A stretch of 40,000 nucleotides of DNA from Fontibacillus panacisegetis. Its GTDB lineage: Bacteria > Bacillota > Bacilli > Paenibacillales > Paenibacillaceae. Shown in pieces: positions 8,362 to 22,366 of the stretch (positions are counted from its first letter, which is position 1; each line of letters opens with the position of its first letter). Under the pieces are notes generated by a model. The model made no database searches and was not told the DNA's origin. It was given only the letters and a program-made list of their open reading frames with translations. The translations under genes and the position numbers were made by a program. The stretch spans positions 206,397 to 246,396 of the forward strand of contig NZ_FNBG01000003.1 in assembly GCF_900102215.1 (NCBI RefSeq). The letters run 5' to 3'.

Positions 8362-8362
8362 C

Positions 8363-11233
8363 TTATTCCCCTCCTCCAATTCCCAAACATTCCATACGAA
8401 CTGGACAAGTAGTACAATGTTTACCAGCATGTTTTGGAAACTTATTTTCCTCTATAGAAACTATCCAGTTTGCTAATTGTTCTTCCGATGAATCTTTGTG
8501 CGAAAGTGTTTTTCTCGTGTAATCAGTGTCTTTATATTGAAATTTTTCGATTACATGGGATTGAATAGTTAACCTCCACCAAGAAACAGCATCAAATAAT
8601 GTTTCAAATACTTCTACACCATCAATATCTTTCATCATAATTGATTGGGCACGGGTTTCATCTTGTTTTTTTGTAGCACTTAGAAGCCATTCATGACTAA
8701 GTTCATAATCTAATAACGGAATAGTTAGGATTCCAGAATTCAAATAGTTAGGCACATTGAAAGAAATAATTTTGTTATCATCACTAGGAAGTGTGACATC
8801 AAATTCTTCATTCTCCCCATCAATTATTCTTACTGGATACAGTCCACGCTTACTTGCATGAAATTGAAGTTGGTCTTCAACTTGACGTTCAACGGCTACC
8901 CATGTCTTAGAATCAAAAGTTGGGAACAACTCTGTTACTTGATCCTTAACACACTTTTTGGCTTCCAAAAGAAAGCGAAACAATCCATCTATCTTCTCAT
9001 CTTCTGATCTTAGGACCCTCGGATTTGGCCATTCACCTGTATATTGAGCTAAATTTGTATAAATTTTATCTAACCAAATTCCTTTTGCAACAATATTAAG
9101 TTGCCATTCAGTGCGGTAAACCATAGCCTCTGGATGCAGTAGTTCTAAACGATATCGTAGGGGACATAACCCATAATGGGCAAGCTCATTTAACTCATAC
9201 CTTTTTCTCCGTGCAGGAGGCGGAGGTGGAAAGACTGGTGGGACTTTGGCGAGTGAGATATCTAATTGATCAAAAATACTGCTAACTTCAGTAGGCTTAT
9301 TCATTAGCCTTTCAATTTCGCCAAGATAAACACTTTTTTGAAATGCACGTTCCCCATCCTTGCTAGAGTATGATAACCAAAGCTTTTCACTTGCAGAACG
9401 AATTACGGTTAAGAACATATAACGTTCTTTCATCATATGATTCTCTCGATTGTCCTCATAAAAAGGCCATGATTCAGAGTACAATACTGGAGAGTGCTGA
9501 CTGTCAACAGCTACATACAAAACTGCTGGCTTGTTAATTCCATCCAATGTTTCTGGAGTTACAATGCTTAAACGGTGATCTTCTTTACCATGATCGTCGT
9601 TATCGTTGTTGTTATCCTCGTCTTCCTCCTCCTGCTCAGTAGTACCCCGAGTCAGAGCGTGAATTGCCTCTCCAAATTCACTCGATGTGATATCTATAGA
9701 ATAATAACTCCCAAGTTCTTCGAAAACCTGTTGAATTTGTTCTAGAACTTCTTGTTCTTCACGACGCAGCCGTTTTGGTAATAATTTTTTCATTTCGGCT
9801 TGCAATAATTCAATATGAGATGCAATTGTTTTTTGCCCTCTAACAAACAACCGAACACATGCACTTTCTAGAAGTGAAACAACTTCCTTCCACCTTGCTA
9901 ATGTATGATGATCAAGTTCAAGTAAATGTAAAGGTAATCTTTTATATTGTGTTTTATGTTTCAGAATAAGTCGTTCCAAAACCGAATTCCACTGTTCCTG
10001 AGTTTCACAATCACTAAAATACTGATGTTTTACAGAGCGAAACAACGATGCTGAATCTTGCAACCGCGGCCCAAGCCAACCTGAAGCCAGAATTGTCTCC
10101 AGTTCGTCCATTGTCAACTTTAAATTTCCATTTTCCCATATACGGTACAAAGTCAATACAAAACGACCAACTGGTGTGAGTAACAACAAACGAGGTTGAA
10201 TAGACAATGTAACCGGAATTGGTTCCGAAGAACTGTCCGAATAAAATAATAGTGGGTTCATCGCTAAGTGATCTCTAAAACGATCAATAAATTCTTTAGA
10301 TCTTCTCATAACAATCACTACATCATCAGGTTTGTACGTTTTGTCTGCGAACCAAACTTGCAGTTGGTCGATACAAGCCAACATTTCCCTATCACGATTT
10401 GGATATTTTTTTATGATAATATTTGAAGTATCCCCTGCGTAGTTCACTGTATTATCAGAAAATAGATTTGATTGCAAAAAGTTTAAGTCTTCTTTTTTAC
10501 TATTGGGATCGGTCTCCAGAACTTTATTTGTAATATTCGGAACAGAACTGTAGGTGTTGCTTATTATTTCAAATCCTTTAGGTTGATTAGGATTTAAGGG
10601 AACGACAAAATATAGTTGGATTTTTTTATTCAAACAAGTTTGAACAAAAAGCTTCTGCAGTTCAGTAAAAAATGTAAATCCTTCCATTATCACAACTGAT
10701 TCTGGAGCAAATCCATTAAGCAGAAACTTCCTAGCAGCAGTTTCAAATAGCTCTCGATTTTTTGCTTTCATTTCATTATGAAATGAATTATGTATTGCAA
10801 TCAAATACCTACCCAATTCTGGATTCACAAGACAATCTAATTTTTCCTGCGGAAGAGAAGTGTATCGCAAGTCAATACCCTGAGTTGCTAAATCATAAAA
10901 AACACGCAAAAAAGAATTCGTGTCCTTATGAAATAAATCATGTAGCAATATATCGTCAGCAGCTACTTCTTTTAAAGCTCTTTTTAGAAAGGTCTTTTCC
11001 TCTCCACGTGTAGCAAACTTAACACCTTTTTCTTTCAGAACTCCTTTAAGAAAATCATTAAACAAGGCACACTTTTTATCCTCCCATATTTGAGTCCTAG
11101 GAATTAGCTCCTTACGTTCACGAGCCAATGCTTTTGTTGCAGTGACATATAAATAGGATTTACCCATAATCATCTCTTGTTTAATTAATGCATCAGATGG
11201 TCGAGAATTCTCATACGTACATAAGTAAGGCAT
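8363..11233 (-). CDS. AddB/RecB-family (PD-(D/E)xK plus 4Fe-4S) nuclease-fold protein with inactivated helicase-like N-region
   Basis: ATG 11233 is preceded by AGGAGGG. The Cys arrangement C(PLRYRLE)...C-TT-C-PVRME-C at the C-terminus equals the AddB/Cas4 Fe-S ligand pattern C-Xn-C-X2-C-X5-C. The N-terminal Walker A is degenerate (QEMIMGKS). A GF.FFTELQ-type AddB motif is present. An acidic low-complexity insert EQEEEDEDNNNDNDDHGKEDH lies at about 9580-9645. Confidence 0.75.
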   Translation of the reverse strand: MPYLCTYENSRPSDALIKQEMIMGKSYLYVTATKALARERKELIPRTQIWEDKKCALFNDFLKGVLKEKGVKFATRGEEKTFLKRALKEVAADDILLHDLFHKDTNSFLRVFYDLATQGIDLRYTSLPQEKLDCLVNPELGRYLIAIHNSFHNEMKAKNRELFETAARKFLLNGFAPESVVIMEGFTFFTELQKLFVQTCLNKKIQLYFVVPLNPNQPKGFEIISNTYSSVPNITNKVLETDPNSKKEDLNFLQSNLFSDNTVNYAGDTSNIIIKKYPNRDREMLACIDQLQVWFADKTYKPDDVVIVMRRSKEFIDRFRDHLAMNPLLFYSDSSSEPIPVTLSIQPRLLLLTPVGRFVLTLYRIWENGNLKLTMDELETILASGWLGPRLQDSASLFRSVKHQYFSDCETQEQWNSVLERLILKHKTQYKRLPLHLLELDHHTLARWKEVVSLLESACVRLFVRGQKTIASHIELLQAEMKKLLPKRLRREEQEVLEQIQQVFEELGSYYSIDITSSEFGEAIHALTRGTTEQEEEDEDNNNDNDDHGKEDHRLSIVTPETLDGINKPAVLYVAVDSQHSPVLYSESWPFYEDNRENHMMKERYMFLTVIRSASEKLWLSYSSKDGERAFQKSVYLGEIERLMNKPTEVSSIFDQLDISLAKVPPVFPPPPPARRKRYELNELAHYGLCPLRYRLELLHPEAMVYRTEWQLNIVAKGIWLDKIYTNLAQYTGEWPNPRVLRSEDEKIDGLFRFLLEAKKCVKDQVTELFPTFDSKTWVAVERQVEDQLQFHASKRGLYPVRIIDGENEEFDVTLPSDDNKIISFNVPNYLNSGILTIPLLDYELSHEWLLSATKKQDETRAQSIMMKDIDGVEVFETLFDAVSWWRLTIQSHVIEKFQYKDTDYTRKTLSHKDSSEEQLANWIVSIEENKFPKHAGKHCTTCPVRMECLGIGGGE

Positions 11234-11350: not shown

Positions 11351-11383
11351 GAAAAAAAAGAACACTCCCAATAGGAATGTTCT
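11351..11383 (-). terminator. Rho-independent terminator after queE
   Basis: Minus strand: AGAACATTCC-TATTG-GGAGTGTTCT (one A/C mismatch) followed by TTTTTTTT, 12 nt after the queE stop. Confidence 0.7.
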
Positions 11384-11394
11384 TTATCTTCACT

Positions 11395-12141
11395 TCAAAC
11401 CCCACGCTTATTACCCCACAACAAAGTGTGTAACTGCGGGAGAACTTTAACTTGTCTCAAATCTGAGGAAGCCATGACTTGATTAATCAACCATTCATAC
11501 TTCTCTAATAGTGCAAATGCCAATCCTTCTCTATCTAATGTCGTTACATCGCTATTACCTACCTGCAAAACCAACCTTATGTGAGGATATCGTTTATGAG
11601 CTTGTACTGCATACTGAAGATCATCTTCATCAAAAACGACTACTTTAATACATATTTCATTTGAACTATTTTTCAAGTTCTCCATAACCTCGTCTAATTT
11701 TTCCCAATCAGTTATCATTCCTGAACTTGGTGGTTTCGGGGAAATCGTCAAGTCATCAATATCTGCCATCCACTCTTGCCATCTGCTTCCTTGTGTCTCC
11801 AACCCAACTCGAATTCCTTGGTCATGAAGCAGATTCACTAAGTATCCAATATTCTTTAAGAGTGCTGGATTACCGCCAGAGATGGTTACATGCTCAAAAG
11901 TGTTTCCACCAAGAATTTTCAATTCATCCCAAATCATTTGGGCAGATAATTGTTTAATTTCATTCTTTGCAGAACCGTCCCATGTAAAGGAAGAATCACA
12001 CCATGAACAGGAATAGTCACAGCCAGCTGTTCGAACAAACATTGTTTTTTGTCCAATCACCAAACCTTCTCCCTGAACAGTTGGACCGAATATTTCCAGC
12101 ACCGGGATGGGCTTTTCCTTAGAAGTCAATCTGCCATCCAC
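11395..12141 (-). CDS. queE: 7-carboxy-7-deazaguanine synthase (radical SAM)
   Basis: LEIFGPTVQGEG...FVRTAGCDYSCSWCDS (CX3CX2C cluster) and ~245 aa match a Bacillus-type QueE. It overlaps the queD stop by 16 nt. Confidence 0.92.
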   Translation of the reverse strand: MDGRLTSKEKPIPVLEIFGPTVQGEGLVIGQKTMFVRTAGCDYSCSWCDSSFTWDGSAKNEIKQLSAQMIWDELKILGGNTFEHVTISGGNPALLKNIGYLVNLLHDQGIRVGLETQGSRWQEWMADIDDLTISPKPPSSGMITDWEKLDEVMENLKNSSNEICIKVVVFDEDDLQYAVQAHKRYPHIRLVLQVGNSDVTTLDREGLAFALLEKYEWLINQVMASSDLRQVKVLPQLHTLLWGNKRGV

Positions 12142-12617
12142 TCCCGTCTTGCTTCGGCATAGCTGGTTGGTGTTTCGAATAACCGGACAAATTCAGTTCT
12201 TGCATCCACGTCTTTTGATGAGTATTTATCAGTACTTAGCGCTGTTTCCATCTGCTCATAAAGCCAAACGACCATGTTTTCAGCAGTCGTATTCATTAAC
12301 GGCAACGTCTCATTTAGATATCTGTGGTCTAAGTATGGCTCTATTTGCTCACGCCAAATTGTTTTTATCATTCCAAAATCTATCGTCATGCCAATTTCAT
12401 TTGTATATCCACTTACTCCAAAAACAACTTTATAGGTGTGACCATGTAGATTTTTACATTTACCCTCATATGCATGCAAGTGATGCGCCGCGTCAAAAGT
12501 AAATTCTTTACTGACTAATACTCTGCGCTGATGATATTTCAACTGTTCTTGAGTAATATCCTCTTTAAACTTTTGCAATGCATCTACAATGACGAATTGC
12601 CCTGGCATTTTGTTCAT
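12126..12617 (-). CDS. queD: 6-carboxy-5,6,7,8-tetrahydropterin synthase
   Basis: [26 protein letters not shown] shows the QueD/PTPS Cys-X3-His-Gly-His signature. Confidence 0.92.
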
Positions 12618-13297
12618 AACATCTGCTCCGGATTTCTTCCTTGCAAAAATCTATCCAAACCAGCTTTTCTCAACTGGCAAGCAGGACAAGTACCACATCC
12701 ATCACCGATAATACCGTTGTAGCAAGTTAAAGTCTTTTGGCGTACAAATTCAAACGCCCCTAATTGATCTGCCATTTCCCACGTCTCTGCTTTATCAATC
12801 CACATTAACGGAGTATGAATGATAAAATTATGATCCATCGCTAAATTTAACGTCACATTTAGGGACTTGATGAAATCATCCCGGCAGTCAGGATATCCAC
12901 TAAAATCTGTCTCGCAGACGCCTGTTACAATATGTCTAGCATCTACTCCTTTAGCAAATACTGCGGCGAAACTTAAAAACAAATGATTACGTCCTTCCAC
13001 AAATGTGCTGGGAAGTTCACCATCATTATGAACAATTTGGAGGTCATTACGTGTCAGAGCATTCTGAGTTAGTTGACCGAGCAAGCTCATATCAAGTAAC
13101 GTCCACTTTACTCCAAGTTCATCGGCGATTTTTTTAGCACATTCAATTTCTAAAGCGTGCCTTTGTCCATAATTAAAGGTGATTGCTTCAACTTCGTCAA
13201 AGTGCTTCATTGCCCAAAACAAACAAGTTGTACTATCTTGACCGCCACTAAAAACTACAACGGCTTTTCTGTTTTTTTGTTCCATAATCTTACCCAC
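12614..13297 (-). CDS. queC: 7-cyano-7-deazaguanine (preQ0) synthase
   Basis: [15 protein letters not shown] is the PP-loop. The C-terminal Zn cysteines are CYNG...[11 protein letters not shown]. There is a 4-nt ATGA overlap with queD. ATG 13285 is an alternative start. Confidence 0.93.
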
Positions 13298-13351
13298 TTT
13301 CTCACCATTCTCCCTTAATGATAACAGATGTACTATTTTATCGAAAGTTGA

Positions 13352-16300
13352 CTATTTATCGTTGCCCACAACTAATCTAATCTCTACAACTTCAAACAAA
13401 TTAGGAAACTTCTCTTTAATCTCTTCTAACAGACGTTTACCTTGGACTGGTGGGAGGGTACTATAACCATTCTCAATGAGTAATCTAATATGTCTTTTTA
13501 TAGAAGGCCTGATTTGAGAATTGTGATTTATTCTTTCGAGTAGTTGATAAATATTCCCAACGTCTTCATAATCAAGATCATTCCGAATTACTTCAAGAAG
13601 GTTTATTTTGATCTGCTCAAGTTGAAGTTTTCTTTCAACCAGTTCTCTTAATTCATAAAAGTCTATTGATTGCCACTCATCAATTACGGAATTGAGTTCA
13701 GATTCAATCTGTGAACCCTCCATTAAGAGCTCAACACATGCAATCATTTTTAATTTAAGTTCCTTAATTGGCTTTAGAATTTCTAATTGGACTTGAAGAT
13801 TTAACAAATACTTAACTAAAGTGCGCGGAGTTAAAGCAAGACAGTTTTTTAGATTTGATACCTGCTGCACATTAGTTAGAATTTTTCTTTTCTTCTTCTC
13901 TAATTCAGACAAAGAGAACTTACCATCATCAACAATTTCTACTCCCACTTCTTCATAAGTCGCTTGCATACCACACTCAATAAGAAAATCAACTACTTCC
14001 ATTAAAGCCTGGTCAAATTGCTTTGATAATTGATCAACTTCATTGTTTAAAGCAAATAACCTATTAAATTGAATGACTAACTCTGGTTGTTCTAATTGTT
14101 GTTCCAGCAGCGTATAATTCACAAGGTCTTGTTGTCGAAGAAATATCTTTTCGTTAAAAGTACAAATTTGGTCTGCAAGTTTAATCCATTCTGATTTACA
14201 AGAACCCATTAGAAATGGAATCATCGTTAGTCTTTTTTCAATTGATTGCCTAAAGCTTTGATGAAGCAGTTCAAGATAACCACTATAGCTTTCTTTTAAG
14301 TTTGATAAGAATTCCTTCAAGGTTAGACTACCTATTGTAAAGCTTTCTAACGTTTTAGAAGGTACAAGACTTAATAACCATAGATCAAATTCTTCATTCG
14401 CTAATACATCATCATCTGGAGTCTCATAAAAATTTTCACGTAACAAATACCAATCTGAATAACATTCATCAAGCAATGACATTAATTCTTTGTTGAAGGG
14501 AGATTTTCCTTTCGCATCGGAAGTCCATGAGGATTCGCTATATATTCTGGCTTGTTGCGCCCAATTCCTCATTCCGTGCACAAATACAGGTAGCTTCAAC
14601 CCAAGAGCTAGCTCGAGAGATTCAAACCATATTTTACGAACATTTTCTGCCTGATATATCCATTTGGAGGTTTCATATTCATTCGAGATTTTTTGAAATG
14701 TATTTAATTTTTCTGAATACTTCATCGTTTGAAAGTTGGTAATTTGAATGCCAACGTAGCTACGATTTACATTTATAGAGAACTCGTCATTTTTGTCTAG
14801 TTTAATAGGATATCGTGTTCGATTAACAACTTCATTCCATTGAATAACTGAGGAGGTTCGAGATGTGAATGAGCGGTTCATATGTACCCCCTTTATAACA
14901 TCATGTACCAGAGCAGCAACTCCAGATCTAACAGGTAATAATAGTTCATCGTTTACTTCTTTTCCTTCTACCCAATCTCTGACTACCTCTTTTTCATTGA
15001 AGACAGCATTATTTTCATTTTTATACTCTATTTGAAGCGGTAGTTCTTCCCTTGTATTACCTGCTGCTATCTTGTTTAACTTAATAGATATTTGATTTTC
15101 GCTATAACCAAAGTGCTTTAACAGGGGTTCAGAAATTATCATTTGAATTGCATCCTCAGACGCATACCATTCAGATAGTGTTTTAATAAACATATCTTCA
15201 TGCTCCGCAAACATTTCCCTGCGTATAAGTGGAATAACTCTACTAACATGCTTTTTACCTTTTAGAAAGAAGCGTAAGATTTCCTTGCTATTCAGTATCA
15301 TGTAACGTAATTTACCTTTTCCTATAGGAATAGCATCGTATGTGCGTCTTAGCATGTGACTATTAAATGGGAGCAACTGAACTCCAAGATAATTTAAATT
15401 ACTATCCTTGTCGCTTTCCTCTGGCAGGATACCAGAACATTGTTTGTAGTGCGGACATTTAAGAGAGCAGTTGAATCCCTGCGTCGCTTTCAGTTGGGTA
15501 AGATAATTTGCTATATATGGTACTACTTGCTTACGATCAAGATTGAAAAAGTCTTTCCCAGACTCATCCGATAGCCATAGCTTTTTTACACGATCATTAA
15601 TAGTATCAAGATTCTGTATTCTTTGTGTGAGACTAAACCCCTTCTCTGTATCCTGAACTGCACCAGGTGTCAAACCAATGACCACATCCCAGCTCCCTTC
15701 TTCTAATGTAATAAGTTGATCAAGGATACTGGTTGCGTAAATATTAACTGATTGAACTAAATCATCAATCAACAACAAAGGACGGATTCCTCTGCTTTTT
15801 ATCTGCAAAGACATTTGTTTAAAAAGGGTTCCGATATCTTGTCCCTCGAAAAGAAAATGGTCCAACTGCCGCGAGAGATTTTGTCGAAATGCTGCGTATT
15901 CTAATGGAATATGAAGGGTTGTATTGGCGAGTAAAGTTTCAAACTGTTCCCGATGCATCACCTCTAGTGGATTTTTAATTTTTCCTCGTTTAACTTGTGA
16001 TGTAAAATCAATAATATTTTGCTCAATCACCGGCCTTAACAATAGTGCTGTTGGAACGATCTCCTCATCGGACTCCATAGCTTCCGCTAATGTTGTCCAA
16101 ACCATTTGGTTAACAAGGGTTATGGGCTTTTTAAGCAAAATCCCCCACCTGTCTTCATCAATACAAACATCTAGGGATAAATTCAGTGTTTCTAAACATT
16201 TTTTGATCAGGGTCTGAGGATTTAGTTCTGTTCGTGAGATTCGTATCACGGGTCTATCTGATACTTCCGCTACCCACTTATCTTTTAACCAACGAAGCAG

Positions 16301-16552
16301 TTCGGATTTCCCCGATCCTGTCGAACCGAATACTAAATAAACTCTGTTGCCACTAGTATCAGTTTCTTTGAGTTCTCCCAACAATTCATCTTCCGTAACC
16401 TCAGCGATTAACTGACTACCGTTATACCTATGCATTACTTGCGGAAAATGCGTTCTTCTGAAATACTCAGGTGATTGGTCATATCGCTCATCTGCAGTAC
16501 CAGCTAAAAGTTTAAGCGAATTTTTGTTGAGACAAGGAAGCATTAGTATCAC
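13352..16552 (-). CDS. Large P-loop NTPase (1066 aa), family unassigned
   Basis: Walker A is VYLVFGSTGSGKSELL near aa 75-90. A Walker-B-like segment RPLLLIDDLVQS lies near aa 265-276. There is a Cys cluster CSLKCPHYKQC, followed by about 650 aa of helical sequence without motifs I recognise. The start is ambiguous (GTG 16552 or ATG 16543). It overlaps the upstream gene by 32-41 nt. Confidence 0.8.
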   Translation of the reverse strand: MILMLPCLNKNSLKLLAGTADERYDQSPEYFRRTHFPQVMHRYNGSQLIAEVTEDELLGELKETDTSGNRVYLVFGSTGSGKSELLRWLKDKWVAEVSDRPVIRISRTELNPQTLIKKCLETLNLSLDVCIDEDRWGILLKKPITLVNQMVWTTLAEAMESDEEIVPTALLLRPVIEQNIIDFTSQVKRGKIKNPLEVMHREQFETLLANTTLHIPLEYAAFRQNLSRQLDHFLFEGQDIGTLFKQMSLQIKSRGIRPLLLIDDLVQSVNIYATSILDQLITLEEGSWDVVIGLTPGAVQDTEKGFSLTQRIQNLDTINDRVKKLWLSDESGKDFFNLDRKQVVPYIANYLTQLKATQGFNCSLKCPHYKQCSGILPEESDKDSNLNYLGVQLLPFNSHMLRRTYDAIPIGKGKLRYMILNSKEILRFFLKGKKHVSRVIPLIRREMFAEHEDMFIKTLSEWYASEDAIQMIISEPLLKHFGYSENQISIKLNKIAAGNTREELPLQIEYKNENNAVFNEKEVVRDWVEGKEVNDELLLPVRSGVAALVHDVIKGVHMNRSFTSRTSSVIQWNEVVNRTRYPIKLDKNDEFSINVNRSYVGIQITNFQTMKYSEKLNTFQKISNEYETSKWIYQAENVRKIWFESLELALGLKLPVFVHGMRNWAQQARIYSESSWTSDAKGKSPFNKELMSLLDECYSDWYLLRENFYETPDDDVLANEEFDLWLLSLVPSKTLESFTIGSLTLKEFLSNLKESYSGYLELLHQSFRQSIEKRLTMIPFLMGSCKSEWIKLADQICTFNEKIFLRQQDLVNYTLLEQQLEQPELVIQFNRLFALNNEVDQLSKQFDQALMEVVDFLIECGMQATYEEVGVEIVDDGKFSLSELEKKKRKILTNVQQVSNLKNCLALTPRTLVKYLLNLQVQLEILKPIKELKLKMIACVELLMEGSQIESELNSVIDEWQSIDFYELRELVERKLQLEQIKINLLEVIRNDLDYEDVGNIYQLLERINHNSQIRPSIKRHIRLLIENGYSTLPPVQGKRLLEEIKEKFPNLFEVVEIRLVVGNDK

Positions 16553-17288
16553 ATCTCCCCTCTACCTTAATCCAGTTCAATGTATTTTTTGGCCCATAGG
16601 ATTTATATGGAAAATCTTGCACATAACTCAATTCTATTTCCCCTGCCTCAGCTAATCCCATCAATGAAAAAATAATCCCTTTATAAATATTCCCTTCTGA
16701 TGTTAAGCATGGAATAACCGGGTGAATAAATCTTTCACAGAATAGATGTAATCCACCCTCCCATGTCTCGTTTCTTTCAATAATACTTCTCATTAATGAA
16801 AGTTGTGGAAGTGCATAAAAACCTGAGTAGACACGTCTCCCCAATCCCCAACATTCCATCATACGCTTCCATGCATTTACTTTTTCATGACCAACTACTG
16901 TCTTCATTAATTGGCTATTAACTTGGTAATGAATATTACTCACAAATAGTCTATCTGGCTTTACAAAGAACTCTTCAAAAATTGTCGTAAATAAATTATC
17001 AAGTGAATCGCTCGGCATATTATCAGAAGTTGAAATCCCCCTTAATCTCAGAAAAACTTCTTTGTTAGACCATGCTTTATTTTGTGACACATAAAATCGT
17101 GCTTTGTCTTTATATATGAATTGTAAATCTTCTAATACCGTCAAGGCACATTCGATTAAAGAGGTAATGTCACCCTCTTCCCGATACTGGAACTTTGTTT
17201 TTAACCCATTTGCATCCATTCCAGGCTTAGCTCTTAGTTCCTCATAAATTACTTCAATTTCTGGCCCGTAACACATTTGGAACAACAT
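16512..17288 (-). CDS. Hypothetical protein (258 aa), possible N-terminal winged-helix
   Basis: ATG 17288 is preceded by GGAGGGG at 5 nt. It overlaps the 3' end of the 310-aa gene by 35 nt and the 5' end of the NTPase gene. There is no catalytic motif, and the wHTH guess is weak. Confidence 0.65.
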   Translation of the reverse strand: MLFQMCYGPEIEVIYEELRAKPGMDANGLKTKFQYREEGDITSLIECALTVLEDLQFIYKDKARFYVSQNKAWSNKEVFLRLRGISTSDNMPSDSLDNLFTTIFEEFFVKPDRLFVSNIHYQVNSQLMKTVVGHEKVNAWKRMMECWGLGRRVYSGFYALPQLSLMRSIIERNETWEGGLHLFCERFIHPVIPCLTSEGNIYKGIIFSLMGLAEAGEIELSYVQDFPYKSYGPKNTLNWIKVEGRCDTNASLSQQKFA

Positions 17289-18186
17289 GTTCGCCCCTCC
17301 TCTGCTTATTTTCTAAAATATCTTTAAATGTTCTTAATAAGTGATAATAATTGTGGACTGATCTTAACTTCATATATTCTCTCGGGGAGGGAATAAAAAT
17401 CTGTTTTGCATTAATTTCACATACAGGGCATTCACAATGAAGTGGATTTTCCAATCGAGGGCTTGTGGGTTTTGCTCTGGATTCTGATAAAAAAAATGTT
17501 CTAAATGGTCTACTGTAAAATACCTGAAAGAATGCAGCGGCCATTGTTGGTCGAGTTGAATCAAATGACTTTACTCCAATATCAACCATCGCATGAAGTT
17601 GAGGAATCCCTGTTACTCCAAAGACATGAAGGTTGGCAGATCCAACAACATCTACAGCTCTCCTAATCATTTCAATCTGTTCAGTCTGATGCTTAAATAA
17701 CAAGGACCCGATCCCGAAATTTTCATACCCCATCTTAATTAACTCATATGCTGAAAACTCTATACTAGCTTGGTCATAACCTTGGATTACTCCCATTGGT
17801 TGAACAAATTTAGGAAGCTCATACTTATTAAAGAGATTTAAATATTCGTACGCATTAAATAGCGTTCTTTCTATGGCCATGTATCGTTCAGATAAAGAGG
17901 TCTTATTTAATAGGGGTTCATCAAAATGAACCATTTGAATTTTTGCCGTTGAATCGCAATCTTCCAAGATTGATAGTTGAATATCAAAAACATCTTTTAG
18001 TGGTGGCCTACTTTTTTGTTTAACATAAAAAACTGATCCACAATCTAGTATTAACTTTTTAGGTTTGTTTCTATACTTCTTTACTCCTCCTCTATTGTCT
18101 GGAATTGCACTTATTAGCACCGGACACGTAGGGAAGTAGTCACAAAAAATTGCATCACTATGTGACCAACCAATATAAAAATCCAC
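17254..18186 (-). CDS. TGT-family transglycosylase, DpdA-like (310 aa, stand-alone)
   Basis: GTG 18186 is preceded by AAGGAGG at 8 nt. TGT hallmarks: LILDCGSVFY (catalytic-Asp region), GVIQGYD, GIGSLL, HVFGVTG, SFDSTRPT, and the zinc site CECPVC...22 aa...HNYYH (CxCxxC...H). Confidence 0.8.
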   Translation of the reverse strand: MDFYIGWSHSDAIFCDYFPTCPVLISAIPDNRGGVKKYRNKPKKLILDCGSVFYVKQKSRPPLKDVFDIQLSILEDCDSTAKIQMVHFDEPLLNKTSLSERYMAIERTLFNAYEYLNLFNKYELPKFVQPMGVIQGYDQASIEFSAYELIKMGYENFGIGSLLFKHQTEQIEMIRRAVDVVGSANLHVFGVTGIPQLHAMVDIGVKSFDSTRPTMAAAFFQVFYSRPFRTFFLSESRAKPTSPRLENPLHCECPVCEINAKQIFIPSPREYMKLRSVHNYYHLLRTFKDILENKQRRGEHVVPNVLRARN

Positions 18187-18204
18187 AACACGAACCTCCT
18201 TTTC

Positions 18205-18223
18205 ATACGTGATTATACGTGAT
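18205..18223 (-). promoter_or_regulatory. Candidate promoter -10 embedded in a tandem direct repeat
   Basis: The minus strand reads ATCACGTAT-A-ATCACGTAT (two 9-mers at a 10-bp period). The TATAAT (18217-18212) is formed at the repeat junction, about 20 nt upstream of the RBS of the 310-aa gene. Confidence 0.35.
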
Positions 18224-18270
18224 ATTTTGATTTTAGCATATTTTTCTTCACATAACTACTCTAAAAAATA

Positions 18271-18295
18271 TAAAAAAAGAAGCCTTCAGGCTTCT
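18271..18295 (-). terminator. Rho-independent terminator overlapping the stop codon of the 262-aa gene
   Basis: Minus strand: AGAAGCC-TGAA-GGCTTCT followed by TTTTTTTATATTTTTT. The TGA stop sits in the loop. Confidence 0.75.
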
Positions 18296-19074
18296 TTTAT
18301 CCATTGTCTCCATATTTCATATATTAATCCGCGCTGTTCATCATTAAATTTGAAGCGACCATTATTTACATTTAAGACAGGATTATCTCTGTCAAAGAAG
18401 TTTCCAGTCCAATTTTCATAATGAAATTTCTTTAATAACAATGGACGCGGCAAAATTTGTGAACCAGTAATCCATTGTTCAATGAAATATCTAATATAGC
18501 AATACCACGCTATAGAGGAATCAGCAATAGATTTTTTTCGGAACTGTTTCCTTTGTACCACAGAAAGGTATCCTAATTCAGAGTAATCATTCATTAAAGA
18601 ATCAACGTACTTGATTAAATCTTTGGTTAATTGAGGATATAAACTACGCTCAATTCGATAGTTTAGAAAATCTTCAAAAATATCATGCAACGATCTGATG
18701 GTCATTAGTTTAGTGGAGTTACTACTTATCTTTTCTCCCCTCTCTATTAACCGTTCAAAACGTTGATAAGACAATAATTGATGAACACAGTAACTTGGAA
18801 ACTGTTGTACTTCAGATACAATTAGAACAACATACTCATCATTCTTACTACCATTGGGCAATTTGTATGTAAATTGTGGGTTTTTCACTTGTAATTTGTT
18901 ATCAATTAAACTCACGACAGTATCATAATTGACTAAAATGACGTCTTCGCCAACTACATCAGACTGAACTACTGGAAATCCCCAATCTTTGATCTGACCT
19001 AGGGGCAAGACAGTAAAATAAACTTTATTGTTCTTTCTCGTTAAATTGCTTATGTTCTCAAAAGTAAAAAACAT
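18286..19074 (-). CDS. Hypothetical protein (262 aa)
   Basis: ATG 19074 is preceded by GGGGGAA. The N-terminal ~100 aa look beta-rich and the C-terminal half looks helical. No motif recognised. Confidence 0.65.
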   Translation of the reverse strand: MFFTFENISNLTRKNNKVYFTVLPLGQIKDWGFPVVQSDVVGEDVILVNYDTVVSLIDNKLQVKNPQFTYKLPNGSKNDEYVVLIVSEVQQFPSYCVHQLLSYQRFERLIERGEKISSNSTKLMTIRSLHDIFEDFLNYRIERSLYPQLTKDLIKYVDSLMNDYSELGYLSVVQRKQFRKKSIADSSIAWYCYIRYFIEQWITGSQILPRPLLLKKFHYENWTGNFFDRDNPVLNVNNGRFKFNDEQRGLIYEIWRQWIKEA

Positions 19075-19088
19075 GGAATTTCCCCCAA

Positions 19089-19129
19089 CGCAAATATGCC
19101 TTAGTGTACCACACTAAGGCATATTTGCG
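19089..19129 (-). repeat. Perfect 19-bp-stem inverted repeat between the 683-aa and 262-aa genes
   Basis: CGCAAATATGCCTTAGTGT-ACC-ACACTAAGGCATATTTGCG fills almost the whole 57-nt intercistronic gap. No T-tract follows it on the coding strand. Confidence 0.9.
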
Positions 19130-19131
19130 CA

Positions 19132-21183
19132 CTATTTATTCCACCGCTTCTTTAATTCCTGAATTTGACTATAATATACATGTGTATTATGGAAGCCTCT
19201 TCGTCTGTTCCTATTGTTACCCCTGAATACTATGACATCAATTCCAATTTCCCTACATATATTACAACCACATTGTTCCCATGGTCTTTCAGATAAAACC
19301 TCTCTATACATGTCCTCATGAACTTCACGCTTTTCACCAAGTATTTTGTCATACTCCAGTATAGCTTCAAGTGTCGAATCTAACTCTCTTGTCCCTGCGC
19401 TGAACTCTCTAAGAGCGCCCAAAGCCTCTTGTTCAAGTCTTCTATATTCCGCAAACTCTATTTCATCACTATTTTGCAACATTTTTTTCACTCGACCAGA
19501 TGTTTCTTTGGCTTCTGGAATTCTAATCGCTGTATAATGTTTTCCATTTAAAGAGTGGTAATTATGCCCTGTTCCTAACCATGCTCTTCTCAATGGTGAA
19601 GAAGAGTCAAATGATGTCACGCCCAACTTATGGAATGACTCCATTGTTCTCACATCTCGTGCAACACCAAATAAGTGCATTCGAAACGTAGGGCTTGGAA
19701 TAATAGGCGCTATTTCTTTTAAAATTTCATATATTTTTTCAGATTGTTCTCTGGCTAAACCACCTAGGGCAACATAATCGTAACCTAACCCAATAAGATG
19801 CGCAACCGCTCTTCGGAAAGAAGGCGGGTCCCACCCTTGAACTATACCTATCGGATGGAACTGATAGTTCATTATTTCTTTTCTTTCTCTATACATGTGT
19901 AAAAATTCTTCCGCCATCGTAAGGGTTAATTCATAACGCTGATTTCGAATGTTTTCATCTTTTTGAAAGGGTCCGACTATCAGATGATCAATAGATACAC
20001 CATAATCTAAACCTAAAGTATGATAGTAATCCATAATTTCTTCGGTCGTATACGGTGGTACATCTTTATCAATATAACTAAAAGCACCGCAATCACCCAT
20101 AATAGGATACTCTCTAGGTAGTTTATAAAAATCGTGCAAACCCATTTCTTCAATCATCTGATTTTTTTGTTTGGTGGCACTATCAATGTTTACTTTAGAG
20201 ACAAGTAACCCATCAAACTGTGGTCTATCGAATATCTGGTGAGCATACACATCATTTTCTAATGGATTTCTATTTTTTTCTGAGAAATCAGTCATAAAAT
20301 CATAATTAGGATCTACCCTATCATCATTCTCTGGAAGGTAAAATCTTGGTTCCTCAATGCAATTTATAGCGACCAACTCATCCGGTACAGGGAACATTTC
20401 ACTAAAGAACTTTAATAAATTTCCACTATCCGATGTTTCATTAAATAACTCAAGTTGTTTAGTTGAAGCAATCGAATCTAAAATAAATGATCTAATTTGA
20501 TCAGGATGATGTATTATTGTGCTCCATTTCTGATCAATATCAGTTGTAATAATATTTCTTAATAAATGTGCAAAAAGATAACCTTTAATTCCGATCAATC
20601 CATATTTAAAGGTTTTAGCTTCTTTTTCACCAATAGTTAATACATGATAATCATCCCAATTTAAAATTCTAGCACGACTAGATGCTCCAGCAAAAAAGAT
20701 AACCTTTTGATTTTTATCCAGATTCAGTGGCCACTCCACAGCTTGTAAATATTTATCTCCGAGCAAGAAAAAAATAAGATCATATTCTGCAATTTTTGTT
20801 TGTAGTACCTGCGTAATTTTGAGTTCTCGCGCCCATCTTTTTATAGACCGTGAGTCCATCGTGTTAAAAGTTACTTCATAAGGCACAATTTGCTCATCTT
20901 CATTCAAAAGGCCATAACCCGCTGAAATAATGCAAAGATCAATGTCCCCTCCTTGCTGACGATATTCTTTAATACCATTCATTAGCGCAAGATGTTGACT
21001 ACCGGTGTACATTTCATCAGCACGTTCTTTAAATTCCAATAATTCTTCTTCTCTTCTTCTCAAGACTTCTTTATTTTTAAAATCGTCAAATACAAGTTGA
21101 TTTATAGGTTTGTGTAACTTCTCTCCAGTACAAGAAGTCACAACAAGAATACGGTTTGACAAAAACATCCCATCCTTTAACAC
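19132..21183 (-). CDS. Fusion protein: N-terminal YaaA/DUF6884-like domain plus C-terminal TGT/DpdA-like transglycosylase (683 aa)
   Basis: C-terminal half: MGDCGAFSY, GIVQGWD, ALGGLA, HLFGVA, SFDSSSPLRR, and the zinc site CGCNIC...22 aa...HNTH. N-terminal ~230 aa: VVTSCTGEK, EMYTGSQH, IISAGYGLLNEDEQIVPYEVTF. The last resembles the YaaA motif SGLYGVLRP...PYRLEM and the SA.YGL motif of DUF6884. ATG 21168 is an alternative start. Confidence 0.8.
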   Translation of the reverse strand: MLKDGMFLSNRILVVTSCTGEKLHKPINQLVFDDFKNKEVLRRREEELLEFKERADEMYTGSQHLALMNGIKEYRQQGGDIDLCIISAGYGLLNEDEQIVPYEVTFNTMDSRSIKRWARELKITQVLQTKIAEYDLIFFLLGDKYLQAVEWPLNLDKNQKVIFFAGASSRARILNWDDYHVLTIGEKEAKTFKYGLIGIKGYLFAHLLRNIITTDIDQKWSTIIHHPDQIRSFILDSIASTKQLELFNETSDSGNLLKFFSEMFPVPDELVAINCIEEPRFYLPENDDRVDPNYDFMTDFSEKNRNPLENDVYAHQIFDRPQFDGLLVSKVNIDSATKQKNQMIEEMGLHDFYKLPREYPIMGDCGAFSYIDKDVPPYTTEEIMDYYHTLGLDYGVSIDHLIVGPFQKDENIRNQRYELTLTMAEEFLHMYRERKEIMNYQFHPIGIVQGWDPPSFRRAVAHLIGLGYDYVALGGLAREQSEKIYEILKEIAPIIPSPTFRMHLFGVARDVRTMESFHKLGVTSFDSSSPLRRAWLGTGHNYHSLNGKHYTAIRIPEAKETSGRVKKMLQNSDEIEFAEYRRLEQEALGALREFSAGTRELDSTLEAILEYDKILGEKREVHEDMYREVLSERPWEQCGCNICREIGIDVIVFRGNNRNRRRGFHNTHVYYSQIQELKKRWNK

Positions 21184-21190
21184 AATATAA

Positions 21191-21212
21191 AATAGGGCGA
21201 GAACGCCCTATT
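21191..21212 (-). terminator. Hairpin (terminator or attenuator) between the transporter and the 683-aa gene
   Basis: Minus strand: AATAGGGCG-TTCT-CGCCCTATT followed by TTATATTG. It begins 2 nt after the transporter stop and ends about 8-20 nt before the next start. Confidence 0.55.
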
Positions 21213-21213
21213 T

Positions 21214-21759
21214 TCAAACAACTTTTGCTTGTTTAAAGAAAATTCGTTTAACAATAATTGCAGCAACTAATTGAACTAATGTCTTAACAATAATTTGGCC
21301 AACGATAGCTAAAAACACAGCATTCCACGGAAGAATATTAGCCCCCAACGGTGATAAACCAATAACAACGAAAATAATACTATCTAAGATTCCACCAACA
21401 ATTCCACTATACGCTACCCTTAGATGAAAAGGTAATTTAAGACGGGAATAGATTTCTGTATCTGTGGTCTCAGATACTGCAAATGTAATAATTGATGCAA
21501 AAACAATCCAAAGTGTATCTCCCAGTAAAAGCGATGTTAATGCTGATAAAATCATTGCTAATAAAATAAGCAAATAGGTCCTGCGTCGACCAATGAAATT
21601 TTGAACAAAATCACGGAAAATAAATGTTGCCCCAATTATAAAAGTCCCTGCCGGAACAATGAAGGGACCGATAAAAAATGGGGGTACTCCTGCTGTTACA
21701 ACATTTGATGAAACGATAGCCAGTAAATAAGCTACGATGGTTAAATATTTAATTTTACA
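21214..21759 (-). CDS. YhhQ/VUT-family queuosine-precursor (preQ0/preQ1) transporter; no canonical start codon
   Basis: The frame is open from 21759: (C)KIKYLTIVAYLLAIVSSNVVTAG...FIFRDFVQNF...VSETTDTEIYSRL...GGILDSIIFVVIG, which are DUF165/YhhQ-type motifs on a multi-TM protein. The track only reports the C-terminal 119 aa because no ATG/GTG/TTG occurs between 21759 and 21573. Confidence 0.7.
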   Translation of the reverse strand, partial: CKIKYLTIVAYLLAIVSSNVVTAGVPPFFIGPFIVPAGTFIIGATFIFRDFVQNFIGRRRTYLLILLAMILSALTSLLLGDTLWIVFASIITFAVSETTDTEIYSRLKLPFHLRVAYSGIVGGILDSIIFVVIGLSPLGANILPWNAVFLAIVGQIIVKTLVQLVAAIIVKRIFFKQAKVV

Positions 21760-21786
21760 TCACCTCTTCAATTTGATCCATCACCA

Positions 21787-21795
21787 ATTATAACA
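21787..21795 (-). promoter_or_regulatory. Extended -10 (TGTTATAAT) upstream of the transporter gene
   Basis: The minus strand reads GTGGTGTTATAATTGG about 20 nt upstream of the GAGGTG RBS. There is no good -35. Confidence 0.35.
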
Positions 21796-21937
21796 CCACT
21801 TTTGATTCCGACCTACCCTCGCTAAACTAAATCATACTACAAATTTCGACTCAGTTTGCTAAGAAATATTTATTAAGGGAGGTATTTTTTACTTTAAGTC
21901 GAATAATTAAATGAGAGATTAAACTTTTATAGATTGG

Positions 21938-22366
21938 TTGAAGATGGAGGTTATTTTTTTGAATAATTATGGAAAATCTGCTATTCGAGCAGTAGAACTC
22001 ATTCAATCCGGTGAAGTTCCTTATACGGAAGATGCCTGGAAAAAAGCGACCACAGAATTTTTCACAATTAAAACCAAGGCATGTCCCAGAAGTGCTTTTT
22101 TGGGGCTTTGCGAAGCAGGCTTAATAAAAGATGTTCATCAGATACATATCAAACAGCCTCTCAAAAATACAATTAACAAAGATCATGCGATTGAAGCTGT
22201 TCAACTGCTCACAGAAAATGAAGATTACGCTTCATACAAATCGCTTCAGTTGTGGAGGATTATTATGCTAGGAAATCAAAAGTCACATAATTTCCAAATG
22301 GACGTAGTACTGGCACTATGGAACAATGGCATGATTTCTCCCGCTAAAACTTATATTATGGCTTAA
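21938..22366 (+). CDS. Hypothetical protein (142 aa or shorter)
   Basis: Sequence ...NNYGKSAIRAVELIQSGEVPYTEDAWKKATTEFF...CPRSAFLGLCEAGLIKD. It is divergent from the island and its start is uncertain. Confidence 0.5.
   Translation: MKMEVIFLNNYGKSAIRAVELIQSGEVPYTEDAWKKATTEFFTIKTKACPRSAFLGLCEAGLIKDVHQIHIKQPLKNTINKDHAIEAVQLLTENEDYASYKSLQLWRIIMLGNQKSHNFQMDVVLALWNNGMISPAKTYIMA

Follow-up and report, generated by a model that had tools for sequence, protein, structure and literature searches.

A predicted DpdB-less variant of the Dpd 7-deazaguanine island with two transglycosylase paralogs in Fontibacillus panacisegetis

The canonical Dpd system is exemplified by Salmonella Montevideo, with dpdA, dpdB and dpdC followed by dpdD–dpdK, and by an Enterobacter plasmid (locus L045 of our sample). 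In Salmonella, the insertion of 7-cyano-7-deazaguanine (preQ0) into DNA by the transglycosylase DpdA needs ATP hydrolysis by the ParB-like protein DpdB, after which DpdC makes 7-amido-7-deazaguanine (ADG) (PMC10164549). The dpdB gene adjoins dpdA in 92% of the genomes that carry dpdA (PMC5699537). Here, we analyze a 40,000-nt stretch of the Fontibacillus panacisegetis genome (contig NZ_FNBG01000003.1, positions 206,397 to 246,396; hereafter the window), where two divergent paralogs of the tRNA-guanine transglycosylase (TGT) superfamily, 683 and 310 aa long, are encoded on the minus strand at 17254–21183. The open reading frames (ORFs) and their superfamily assignment are as the first-pass annotation of this DNA had described them. 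By gene content, we interpret this locus as a variant, without DpdB, of the Dpd island for 7-deazaguanine restriction-modification, and it is carried on a low-GC island. Its shorter paralog forms a trio with a 258-aa protein and a P-loop NTPase, and this trio is kept in 32 of 36 related genome loci, in Bacillota and Chloroflexota, always within Dpd-type islands.

Compared with canonical Dpd, the window has a bacterial DpdA (bDpdA) orthologue with all catalytic and zinc-binding residues, a DpdC-like domain, and genes for the synthesis and transport of preQ0 within its island, and the same DpdD, DpdE, DpdF, DpdJ and DpdK occur in its relatives. In contrast, the window lacks DpdB (a ParB/DGQHR ATPase), its DpdC is fused to DpdA, it has the additional trio and an orphan 262-aa gene, and a 956-aa protein and a UvrD-like helicase are found in place of DpdD–DpdK. 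The combination by which a Dpd island is recognized, dpdA with dpdC and preQ0 supply genes, is present here as the DpdC-like/DpdA fusion, queC, queD and queE, and a Vut transporter. All of these genes are on the minus strand. From 21.8 down to 6 kb, they are a transporter of the Vut/YhhQ family for 7-deazaguanine precursors (21214–21759; Pfam Vut_1, E = 1.3e-12; TIGR00697), the 683-aa gene (19132–21183), the 262-aa gene (18286–19074), the 310-aa short TGT gene (17254–18186), the 258-aa gene (16512–17288), the 1066-aa NTPase gene (13352–16552), queC (12614–13297; TIGR00364, 276 bits, cut-off 150), queD, encoding 6-carboxytetrahydropterin synthase (12126–12617; TIGR03367, 105.5 bits, cut-off 89), queE, encoding 7-carboxy-7-deazaguanine synthase (11395–12141; TIGR03365, 370.5 bits, cut-off 206), and the genes for the 956-aa protein and the 786-aa UvrD-like helicase (6070–11233).

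The longer paralog contains a bona fide DpdA. Residues 280–676 match the NCBIfam DpdA model (NF041059) with 445.5 bits (cut-off 200) over profile positions 2–405 of 406, and the similarity to S. Montevideo DpdA (PDB 7UI4; E = 1.3e-89) extends across the whole chain, including its Ins8 insertion. Upstream of this domain (residues 280–683, encoded at 19132–20346), the N-terminal 279 residues (20347–21183) match Pfam DUF6884 (E = 1.5e-12) and the PADLOC models for DpdC (E = 1.9e-11). By BLASTP, they also match an unannotated 283-aa ORF located directly upstream of dpdA on the Enterobacter dpd plasmid (E = 4e-8), an ORF that has no family hit of its own. With a DpdC-like domain at its N-terminus and DpdA at its C-terminus, the protein is therefore a DpdC–DpdA fusion; its earlier description as DpdA-like, correct in that a full bacterial DpdA is present, was incomplete. 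The gene probably starts at an ATG five codons inside the listed ORF, yielding 678 aa as in the L001 gene call. No DpdB ATPase is encoded beside this DpdA, either in the window or in any related locus.

The same DUF6884–DpdA fusion exists in cyanobacteria, on plasmids of Allocoleopsis/Microcoleus PCC 7113 and Nostoc sp. NIES-3756, with a DpdA domain that is 47–50% identical to that of the window. In both it is annotated simply as ‘DpdA’; the PCC 7113 locus is a published example cluster. The PCC 7113 locus differs from the window by keeping a DndB-type DpdB and by having neither the trio nor a second TGT. The Nostoc plasmid (locus L047, 12789–18450) is another two-TGT, Dpd-like locus, pairing the fusion with a short TGT of 315 aa, and no DpdB was detected in it. 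However, its short TGT belongs to a different clade (27% identity, E = 9e-9), passes the tgt_general model, and is encoded between two Hel308-like helicases rather than beside a winged-helix protein and an AAA+ ATPase.

Mutagenesis of Salmonella DpdA has assigned Asp95 as the general acid/base, Asp256 as the nucleophile, and Asp130 and His181 as readers of the guanine’s Watson-Crick edge (PMC10164549). The catalytic residues of both window paralogs map onto these four positions. In the 683-aa protein, they are D364 (general acid/base), D526 (nucleophile), and D399 and Q449 (Watson-Crick edge), where Gln449 occupies the His181 position, as in tRNA TGTs. The zinc site (CxCxxC…H) consists of C638, C640, C643 and H665, and the base pocket (G474/G475) lies in a GGLARE motif that fits the ‘GGhsbb’ pattern proposed for preQ0-type enzymes. 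These catalytic, pocket and zinc positions show little or no variation across 31 orthologues of the bDpdA domain.

The 310-aa protein belongs to the Pfam TGT family (55.4 bits, cut-off 26.3). It scores below the cut-off of the NCBIfam DpdA model (77.1 bits versus 200) and aligns to profile positions 77–263 only. Its active site consists of D48 (general acid/base), D209 (nucleophile), and D89 and Q135 (Watson-Crick edge), its zinc site of C251, C253, C256 and H278, and its pocket of G160 and S161; all of these residues are invariant or nearly so in 43 members of the short-TGT family. The pocket motif is GSLLFK, with an invariant Ser followed by bulky residues, unlike the Gly-rich preQ1/queuine type. 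The two window paralogs are 27% identical over 197 residues (E = 2e-12). When the two family profiles are aligned by hhalign, the match covers 262 columns with a 99.8% probability (E = 4.6e-28, ~20% identity) and takes in the barrel and the zinc module. The alignment contains a single large gap, of ~90 residues, at Ins8, which has no counterpart in the 310-aa protein. In the Salmonella enzyme, Ins8 makes up ~30% of the protein and bears the DNA-wedging Phe265, which is essential for exchange in duplex DNA (PMC10164549). The 310-aa protein is thus predicted to be a minimal TGT barrel with a zinc module, forming a separate clade nearest to bDpdA.

The ranking of profile matches describes this placement quantitatively. 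The short-TGT profile is closest to bDpdA (E = 4.6e-28), followed by the short TGT of the Nostoc plasmid (E = 5e-19), an archaeal TGT (PDB profile, E = 2e-10) and, more remotely, E. coli Tgt (E = 3.7e-8). A neighbor-joining tree of the profile-recruited proteins separates groups of ~350 aa (including the Nostoc protein), of ~300 aa (including the window protein) and of bDpdA; it is a rough tree without bootstrap and shows grouping only. The short family comprises 91 clusters at 90% identity, with 41 representatives at E < 1e-30 among 1.84 billion proteins, and annotation pipelines call its members ‘queuine tRNA-ribosyltransferase’. The window member matches a protein of F. panacisegetis with 100% identity. 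Each paralog has its own orthologues in two phyla and falls into its own group of the tree, in agreement with the proposal that the pair did not arise by recent duplication.

The phage enzymes DpdA1–DpdA4, represented by phage 9g DpdA and Dp-1 Gp7, resemble the short TGT in being TGT-fold enzymes of ~310 aa that act on DNA without DpdB. No PHROG matched the short TGT, and a tblastn search of 50,697 phage records returned one weak hit; both scans are insensitive here, as even bDpdA finds only two records. We consequently compared its profile with those of 9g DpdA, Dp-1 Gp7 and E. coli Tgt. Unlike bDpdA, the two phage proteins show no meaningful sequence similarity to it: 9g DpdA1 reached E = 3.6e-3 (9% probability) and Dp-1 Gp7, whose subfamily was not checked, gave no significant match. 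The placement among DpdA clades that the first-pass annotation had called for is thereby obtained on the bacterial side (the 683-aa protein is a bDpdA, and the 310-aa protein forms its own clade nearest to bDpdA); on the phage side it covers 9g DpdA and Dp-1 Gp7, and not DpdA3, DpdA4 or the DpdA2 of phage nt-1.

Both transglycosylases are accordingly predicted to be catalytically intact, with neither a pseudo-enzyme. The idea that one of them had lost its catalytic Asp residues or its substrate pocket, which would have changed the interpretation of the pair, is ruled out by the conservation of catalytic, pocket and zinc residues in both families. A tRNA TGT identity is likewise ruled out by model scores of 22–28 bits against cut-offs above 300: the 310-aa protein scores 23.8 bits with TIGR00430 and 22.3 bits with TIGR00432 (cut-offs 306.75 and 350), and the 683-aa protein has no hit to the former and 28.1 bits with the latter.

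Next to the short TGT are the other two proteins of the trio. The 258-aa protein has no Pfam hit, and hence none to DUF4007 or BrxA, and its 78 homologue clusters are all unannotated (‘hypothetical’). Its AlphaFold2 model (pLDDT 89, pTM 0.84) contains three helix-helix-helix-strand-strand units of winged-helix type. By Foldseek, the model has only weak matches to multi-winged-helix proteins (RPC3, SelB, SspB, Nse and VPS25; best E = 3.3e-3), the match to the DUF4007 protein SspB having a probability of 0.80 and a TM score of 0.33. The model indicates that the protein is a tandem winged-helix protein, and it is a fixed partner of the short TGT. The NTPase matches Pfam AAA_22 and has invariant Walker A (G76–S83) and Walker B (D263/D264) motifs. 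In its AlphaFold2 model (pLDDT 83), an N-terminal part of 400–500 residues is followed by a long helical remainder. The N-terminal part finds RdrA, Cdc6/Orc1, NOD2 and TrwB by Foldseek with probabilities of 0.96–1.0 and E-values no better than 1.4e-3, and a search of PDB sequences with the NTPase profile found nothing. From this predicted fold, the N-terminal part is similar to the origin recognition complex (ORC)/Cdc6 proteins and to signal transduction ATPases with numerous domains (STAND). A weak match to the N-terminus of DpdH (33 bits) is confined by hhalign to residues 14–93 (E = 9.5e-5); DpdH was grouped with BrxC in a 2025 preprint.

We considered whether the trio might be a re-ordered DpdG/DpdH/DpdI or might conceal a DpdB. 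Comparisons by hhalign with the Enterobacter DpdB, DpdD, DpdG, DpdH and DpdI returned only the NTPase–DpdH match at the N-terminus and otherwise noise, which rules out both. The 262-aa protein, which follows the fusion gene, has no hit in Pfam, NCBIfam or PADLOC and no profile similarity to DpdB, DpdD, DpdG, DpdI or the 258-aa family. It is restricted to loci of Bacillales, where it always comes after the fusion gene (17 loci). A paralogous relationship between the 258-aa and 262-aa proteins was rejected, as neither BLASTP nor hhalign found similarity between them.

We then quantified how the trio co-occurs with other Dpd genes in 36 genome loci and in additional metagenome and plasmid loci (L002–L004 and L041–L044), comparing every ORF in them with the proteins of the window and with reference Dpd proteins. 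Of the 36 genome loci, 32 have the 258-aa homologue next to the short TGT and 33 the NTPase homologue, most exceptions being contig ends; the trio is also present in the additional loci. In 24 of the 36, a bDpdA is encoded at most 10 kb from the short TGT, generally as the DpdC fusion, and at least 22 have Dpd restriction genes (DpdE/F or DpdJ/K/D) as neighbors. Searches for DpdB/DndB by phmmer, jackhmmer, a motif scan and precomputed Pfam tables found none in the window or the related loci. One DGQHR-motif hit, in Dictyobacter kobayashii (L035), was rejected as a DpdB because it is a GmrSD/Schlafen type IV enzyme; this protein, encoded right after the short TGT gene (11939–14110 of that locus), combines GmrSD_N, which carries a DGQQR motif, with Schlafen AlbA_2.

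Several loci (L025, L026/L041, L031, L039 and L043) have no TGT-like ORF within 10 kb other than the short TGT. Two of these (L031 and L026/L041) have the trio directly beside DpdJ–DpdK–DpdD, the site that dpdA and dpdB occupy in the canonical Enterobacter island, which is the one example used for this comparison. Genes for queC and the Vut transporter come after the short TGT on the same strand in L031 and L037. The window’s own short TGT is predicted to be transcribed with queC, queD and queE, up to a terminator at 11385–11357.

The central question is what the trio does. We give an even chance to the reading in which it would be an ATP-driven module for preQ0 insertion, replacing and analogous to DpdA plus DpdB, with the DpdC–DpdA fusion adding a second site or strand specificity, ADG formation, or both. 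From the computed homology, intact active sites, synteny and absence of DpdB, we infer a DNA substrate, a preQ0 base, coupling to the ATPase and a division of labor between the two enzymes. The ATPase and the winged-helix protein would engage the target DNA and spend ATP on opening or bending it, which is the job of DpdB for DpdA in Salmonella; in this way they would provide the handling of DNA that is missing from the minimal barrel. The short TGT would exchange the target guanine for preQ0, provided by the co-transcribed QueC, QueD and QueE together with the Vut transporter. The separately transcribed fusion would place preQ0 at a second kind of site or on a second strand, possibly via the same ATPase, or its DpdC-like domain would convert dPreQ0 to dADG, or both. 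Incoming DNA without the mark would next face attack by the products of neighboring helicase and nuclease genes, these being the 956-aa protein and the UvrD-like helicase in the window and DpdD–DpdK in its relatives. We prefer this reading because DpdB is missing where the trio is present, because the trio can be the sole TGT unit beside restriction and preQ0 genes, and because the window’s short TGT shares its predicted transcript with queC, queD and queE.

Several observations weigh against an insertion module of this kind. The invariant Ser161 of the short TGT replaces the second pocket Gly. The bDpdA domain, with its catalytic residues intact, is retained in 24 of the 36 loci without a clear reason if the trio alone writes, and in the loci that appear to lack it, it may sit past the 10-kb flanks. 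The Chloroflexota loci have the 258-aa and NTPase genes in the orientation of DpdC–DpdA and the short TGT divergent, a layout that fits equally well an ATPase that serves bDpdA and a short TGT that does something else. The short-TGT, 258-aa and NTPase families are characterized by sequence and predicted structure only, with structural E-values that are weak even at best (1.4e-3 for the NTPase and 3.3e-3 for the 258-aa protein). Finally, the window has no DpdD–DpdK gene, and restriction by the window locus is consequently a prediction.

A related arrangement has been described outside Dpd. BREX-Related Capture (BRC) systems combine a TGT with a tripartite winged-helix protein of DUF4007/BrxA type, a STAND NTPase and a BrxC-like AAA+ protein, and their authors independently propose that the NTPase substitutes for DpdB beside the TGT and the winged-helix protein (PMC12839542; Nucleic Acids Research, 2026). 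As in BRC, the window’s TGT is found without a separate DpdB or DpdC beside a multi-winged-helix protein and a P-loop NTPase, a likeness at the level of the published description. Unlike BRC, the window has no PglZ, HerA/FtsK or GNAT protein, its 258-aa protein falls outside Pfam DUF4007 and BrxA, and its trio lies inside a Dpd island with a second TGT of bDpdA type.

The proposal of the first-pass annotation that described Dpd systems use a single DpdA agrees with the literature examined, of which the founding papers (PMC4801273 and PMC6207457) were not a part. Our literature search, with the supplementary figures of those papers outside its scope, found no description of a two-TGT bacterial Dpd island, of the short family or of its two partners. 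Detection rules that require dpdA plus dpdB, such as those of the GATOR-GC survey, would miss these islands of Bacillota and Chloroflexota. A variant that has a different ATPase, a winged-helix protein and a minimal barrel without the DNA-wedging insertion in place of DpdB provides a natural experiment for how DpdA reaches a guanine within duplex DNA and why this requires an ATPase, and also for how marked and unmarked DNA are distinguished in Dpd restriction. As a writer, the trio would represent a new subfamily of bacterial DNA transglycosylases and a second solution to ATP-coupled base exchange.

There is a real, if minority, chance that the short TGT, the winged-helix protein and the ATPase are instead a reader or effector of unmodified DNA, which would leave the DpdC–DpdA fusion as the sole writer. 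Sites that carry 7-deazaguanine would be inert to a reader-type TGT, because a 7-deaza base lacks an N7 that could be protonated and its insertion by a TGT is effectively irreversible. On an unmodified G, the TGT reaction would begin, and the resulting covalent Asp209–DNA intermediate or abasic site would mark or damage the foreign DNA and recruit the products of the helicase and nuclease genes. In its most specific form, which we hold slightly less probable, the short TGT would not write at all and would serve as a discriminator of self from non-self, possibly a first-strike effector, with the ATPase and the winged-helix protein converting the event into helicase and nuclease recruitment. It would then be the first transglycosylase that reads a DNA mark, revealing the sensing step of Dpd restriction and supplying its missing recognition step.

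Several features speak for such a reader. The short TGT has its own promoter-like region with a conserved terminator upstream, and its gene is divergent from the other module genes in Chloroflexota and Clostridia, with the 258-aa and NTPase genes co-operonic with DpdC–DpdA in Chloroflexota. The partner ATPase is of a sensor type (ORC/Cdc6- or STAND-like), and the protein that its N-terminus weakly resembles, DpdH, is restriction-side and BrxC-like. The invariant pocket Ser in place of Gly could also alter which base is accepted. Against this, at least five loci have no other TGT within 10 kb and hence no writer nearby, and the loci with two TGTs would still lack a DpdB for their bDpdA writer. 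The co-transcription or adjacency of the short TGT with queC, queD, queE and the preQ0 transporter fits a user of preQ0, and, given preQ0, an active TGT would simply carry the exchange through and so place the modification on the invader. On balance, the comparative data favor the short TGT as a second writer over a reader.

The presence of two TGT paralogs for one pathway also recalls the eukaryotic QTRT1/QTRT2 enzyme. By analogy, the short TGT could be an obligate, QTRT2-like partner of the bDpdA domain that holds or orients the DNA, with the ATPase and the winged-helix protein replacing DpdB for the heteromer. TGT enzymes are commonly dimers, and the eukaryotic one is a heterodimer of paralogs (cited in PMC10164549). 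The two TGT types are adjacent in 24 of 36 loci, their genes being directly divergent in L034, L036 and L038, and a short TGT without Ins8 is probably unable to wedge DNA by itself. However, QTRT2 is non-catalytic and partners of its type have lost the catalytic Asp, whereas both window paralogs keep their catalytic residues, and the short family shows no variation in its three Asp residues or its pocket. The short TGT can also occur alone, being found without bDpdA in several loci; conversely, cyanobacterial bDpdA–DpdC fusions function with DndB/DpdB and no short TGT, and Salmonella DpdA is a monomer (PMC10164549). We therefore regard an obligate partnership as improbable.

A substrate other than DNA is very improbable. 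TGT-fold proteins have been repurposed in defense to act on a protein-linked base (bioRxiv 10.1101/2025.04.06.647259): Cap10 of type IV cyclic-oligonucleotide-based anti-phage signaling systems (CBASS) is, like the short TGT, a small TGT-fold defense protein with fixed protein partners, and the two are of about the same size. The short TGT might by analogy act on a protein-linked 7-deazaguanine, for instance to tether the NTPase or the 258-aa protein, or else on tRNA or another RNA. However, Cap10 has lost its zinc site and its nucleic-acid-binding surfaces, and it binds a protein-linked base made by the QueC-like Cap9, whereas the CxCxxC…H site of the short TGT is invariant and the window’s QueC is canonical (276 bits), resembling neither Cap9 nor QatC. 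The window contains no cGAS/DncV-like nucleotidyltransferase (CD-NTase), the tRNA TGT models score only 22–24 bits against cut-offs above 300, and the nearest clade, bDpdA, is a DNA enzyme.

That the two TGTs are chance neighbors from unrelated systems, or that one of them is decaying, is scarcely credible: defense islands do accumulate unrelated systems, and the canonical DpdD–DpdK are missing from the window, but loci of two phyla share the pairing despite their rearranged gene orders, the catalytic residues are invariant in both families, genes of the module overlap and the terminator between the TGT genes is conserved.

The division into two transcription units, one with the 683- and 262-aa genes and the other with the 310-aa, 258-aa, NTPase and queCDE genes, agrees with the first-pass annotation. 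It is supported by overlaps between the ORFs of the program-made list (35 nt for 310 aa/258 aa and 41 nt for 258 aa/NTPase) and by the terminator that closes the second unit (11357–11385, minus strand), a 13-bp stem with a T-run (folding free energy ΔG = −20.3 kcal/mol, z = −6.9). The end of the first unit is marked by a hairpin and long U-run resembling an intrinsic terminator (18275–18298, minus strand; z = −3.1), which overlaps the stop codon of the 262-aa ORF and whose position is kept in 15 related loci with differing stem sequences. A strong terminator had been proposed at 18271–18295; the hairpin and U-run, from 18298 to 18275, make a plausible intrinsic terminator, of moderate and not exceptional strength (ΔG = −13.8 kcal/mol).

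Between this terminator and the short TGT gene, just 5′ of its ribosome-binding site, two exact tandem ATCACGTAT boxes with a 10-bp period flank a TATAAT on the minus strand (18205–18223, read from the sequence). No further exact copy occurs in the window, and TCACGTA boxes occupy the same place in several relatives. These boxes are a candidate promoter/operator and a possible binding site for a regulator. Between the 683- and 262-aa genes is a perfect palindrome with a 19-bp stem (19089–19129, with no strand assigned; RNA ΔG = −31.5 kcal/mol, z = −7.3), which has no U-tract after it and immediately precedes the next ribosome-binding site. The palindrome core, GCCYTAGTGT-N3-ACACTARGGC, is kept in loci whose proteins are ~68% identical, including a compensatory change from T:A to C:G, and it could be an RNA hairpin or an operator. 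Another terminator-like hairpin separates the Vut gene from the 683-aa gene (21189–21214, minus strand; 11-bp stem with a T-run, ΔG = −16.2 kcal/mol, z = −5.9).

The Vut gene itself has an unusual beginning. The listed ORF is 119 aa long from a TTG, the frame is open for 182 codons, and the conserved N-terminus (KYLTIV) is not preceded by an ATG, GTG or TTG. Both the window and five relatives have a GAGGTGA ribosome-binding site with an ATT codon after it, or ATC in the case of one relative, which suggests a conserved AUU/AUC start and not a truncation. No preQ1 riboswitch was found upstream of the gene, either by a scan of the window at Rfam gathering thresholds or by a relaxed scan of 21500–22000.

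Genes dpdD–dpdK are present in most related loci; in the window we found none, the sole trace being the weak DpdH-like N-terminal match of the NTPase. In the closest relatives, whose short TGTs are 93–95% identical to that of the window, DpdE/DpdF occupy the site that the window fills with the 956-aa and UvrD-like genes, and this may reflect a swap of restriction modules. The UvrD-like protein has clear UvrD Pfam domains (E = 2.6e-50); the 956-aa protein belongs to no known family, with a 27-bit match to a fragment of AddB only, and a search of PDB sequences with it found nothing. The same pair comes after the trio in Paenibacillus sp. ClWae2A (L010). From gene position and domain content, the pair is a candidate restriction effector of the window island. 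In a Roseiflexaceae locus (L034), the two TGTs are accompanied by NurA, a UvrD-like helicase and a PD-(D/E)xK nuclease.

In a locus of a Bacillus sp. SLBN-46 relative (L002, 2541–5591), genes for an EVE-HNH protein, a MazG-like protein and a Schlafen-group-3 helicase lie directly upstream of the DpdC–DpdA gene. EVE domains read modified bases, and this neighborhood consequently places a system directed at modified DNA next to a Dpd-like island. In the window, the first 6000 nt contain candidate defense genes for proteins of 618 aa (no family), 308 aa (an nSTAND3-type P-loop protein) and 215 aa (no family). The G+C content is 0.30–0.39 across ~1–24.4 kb and 0.41–0.47 in the flanks, and the end of the low-GC island lies near an IS200-type transposase gene (786–1193).

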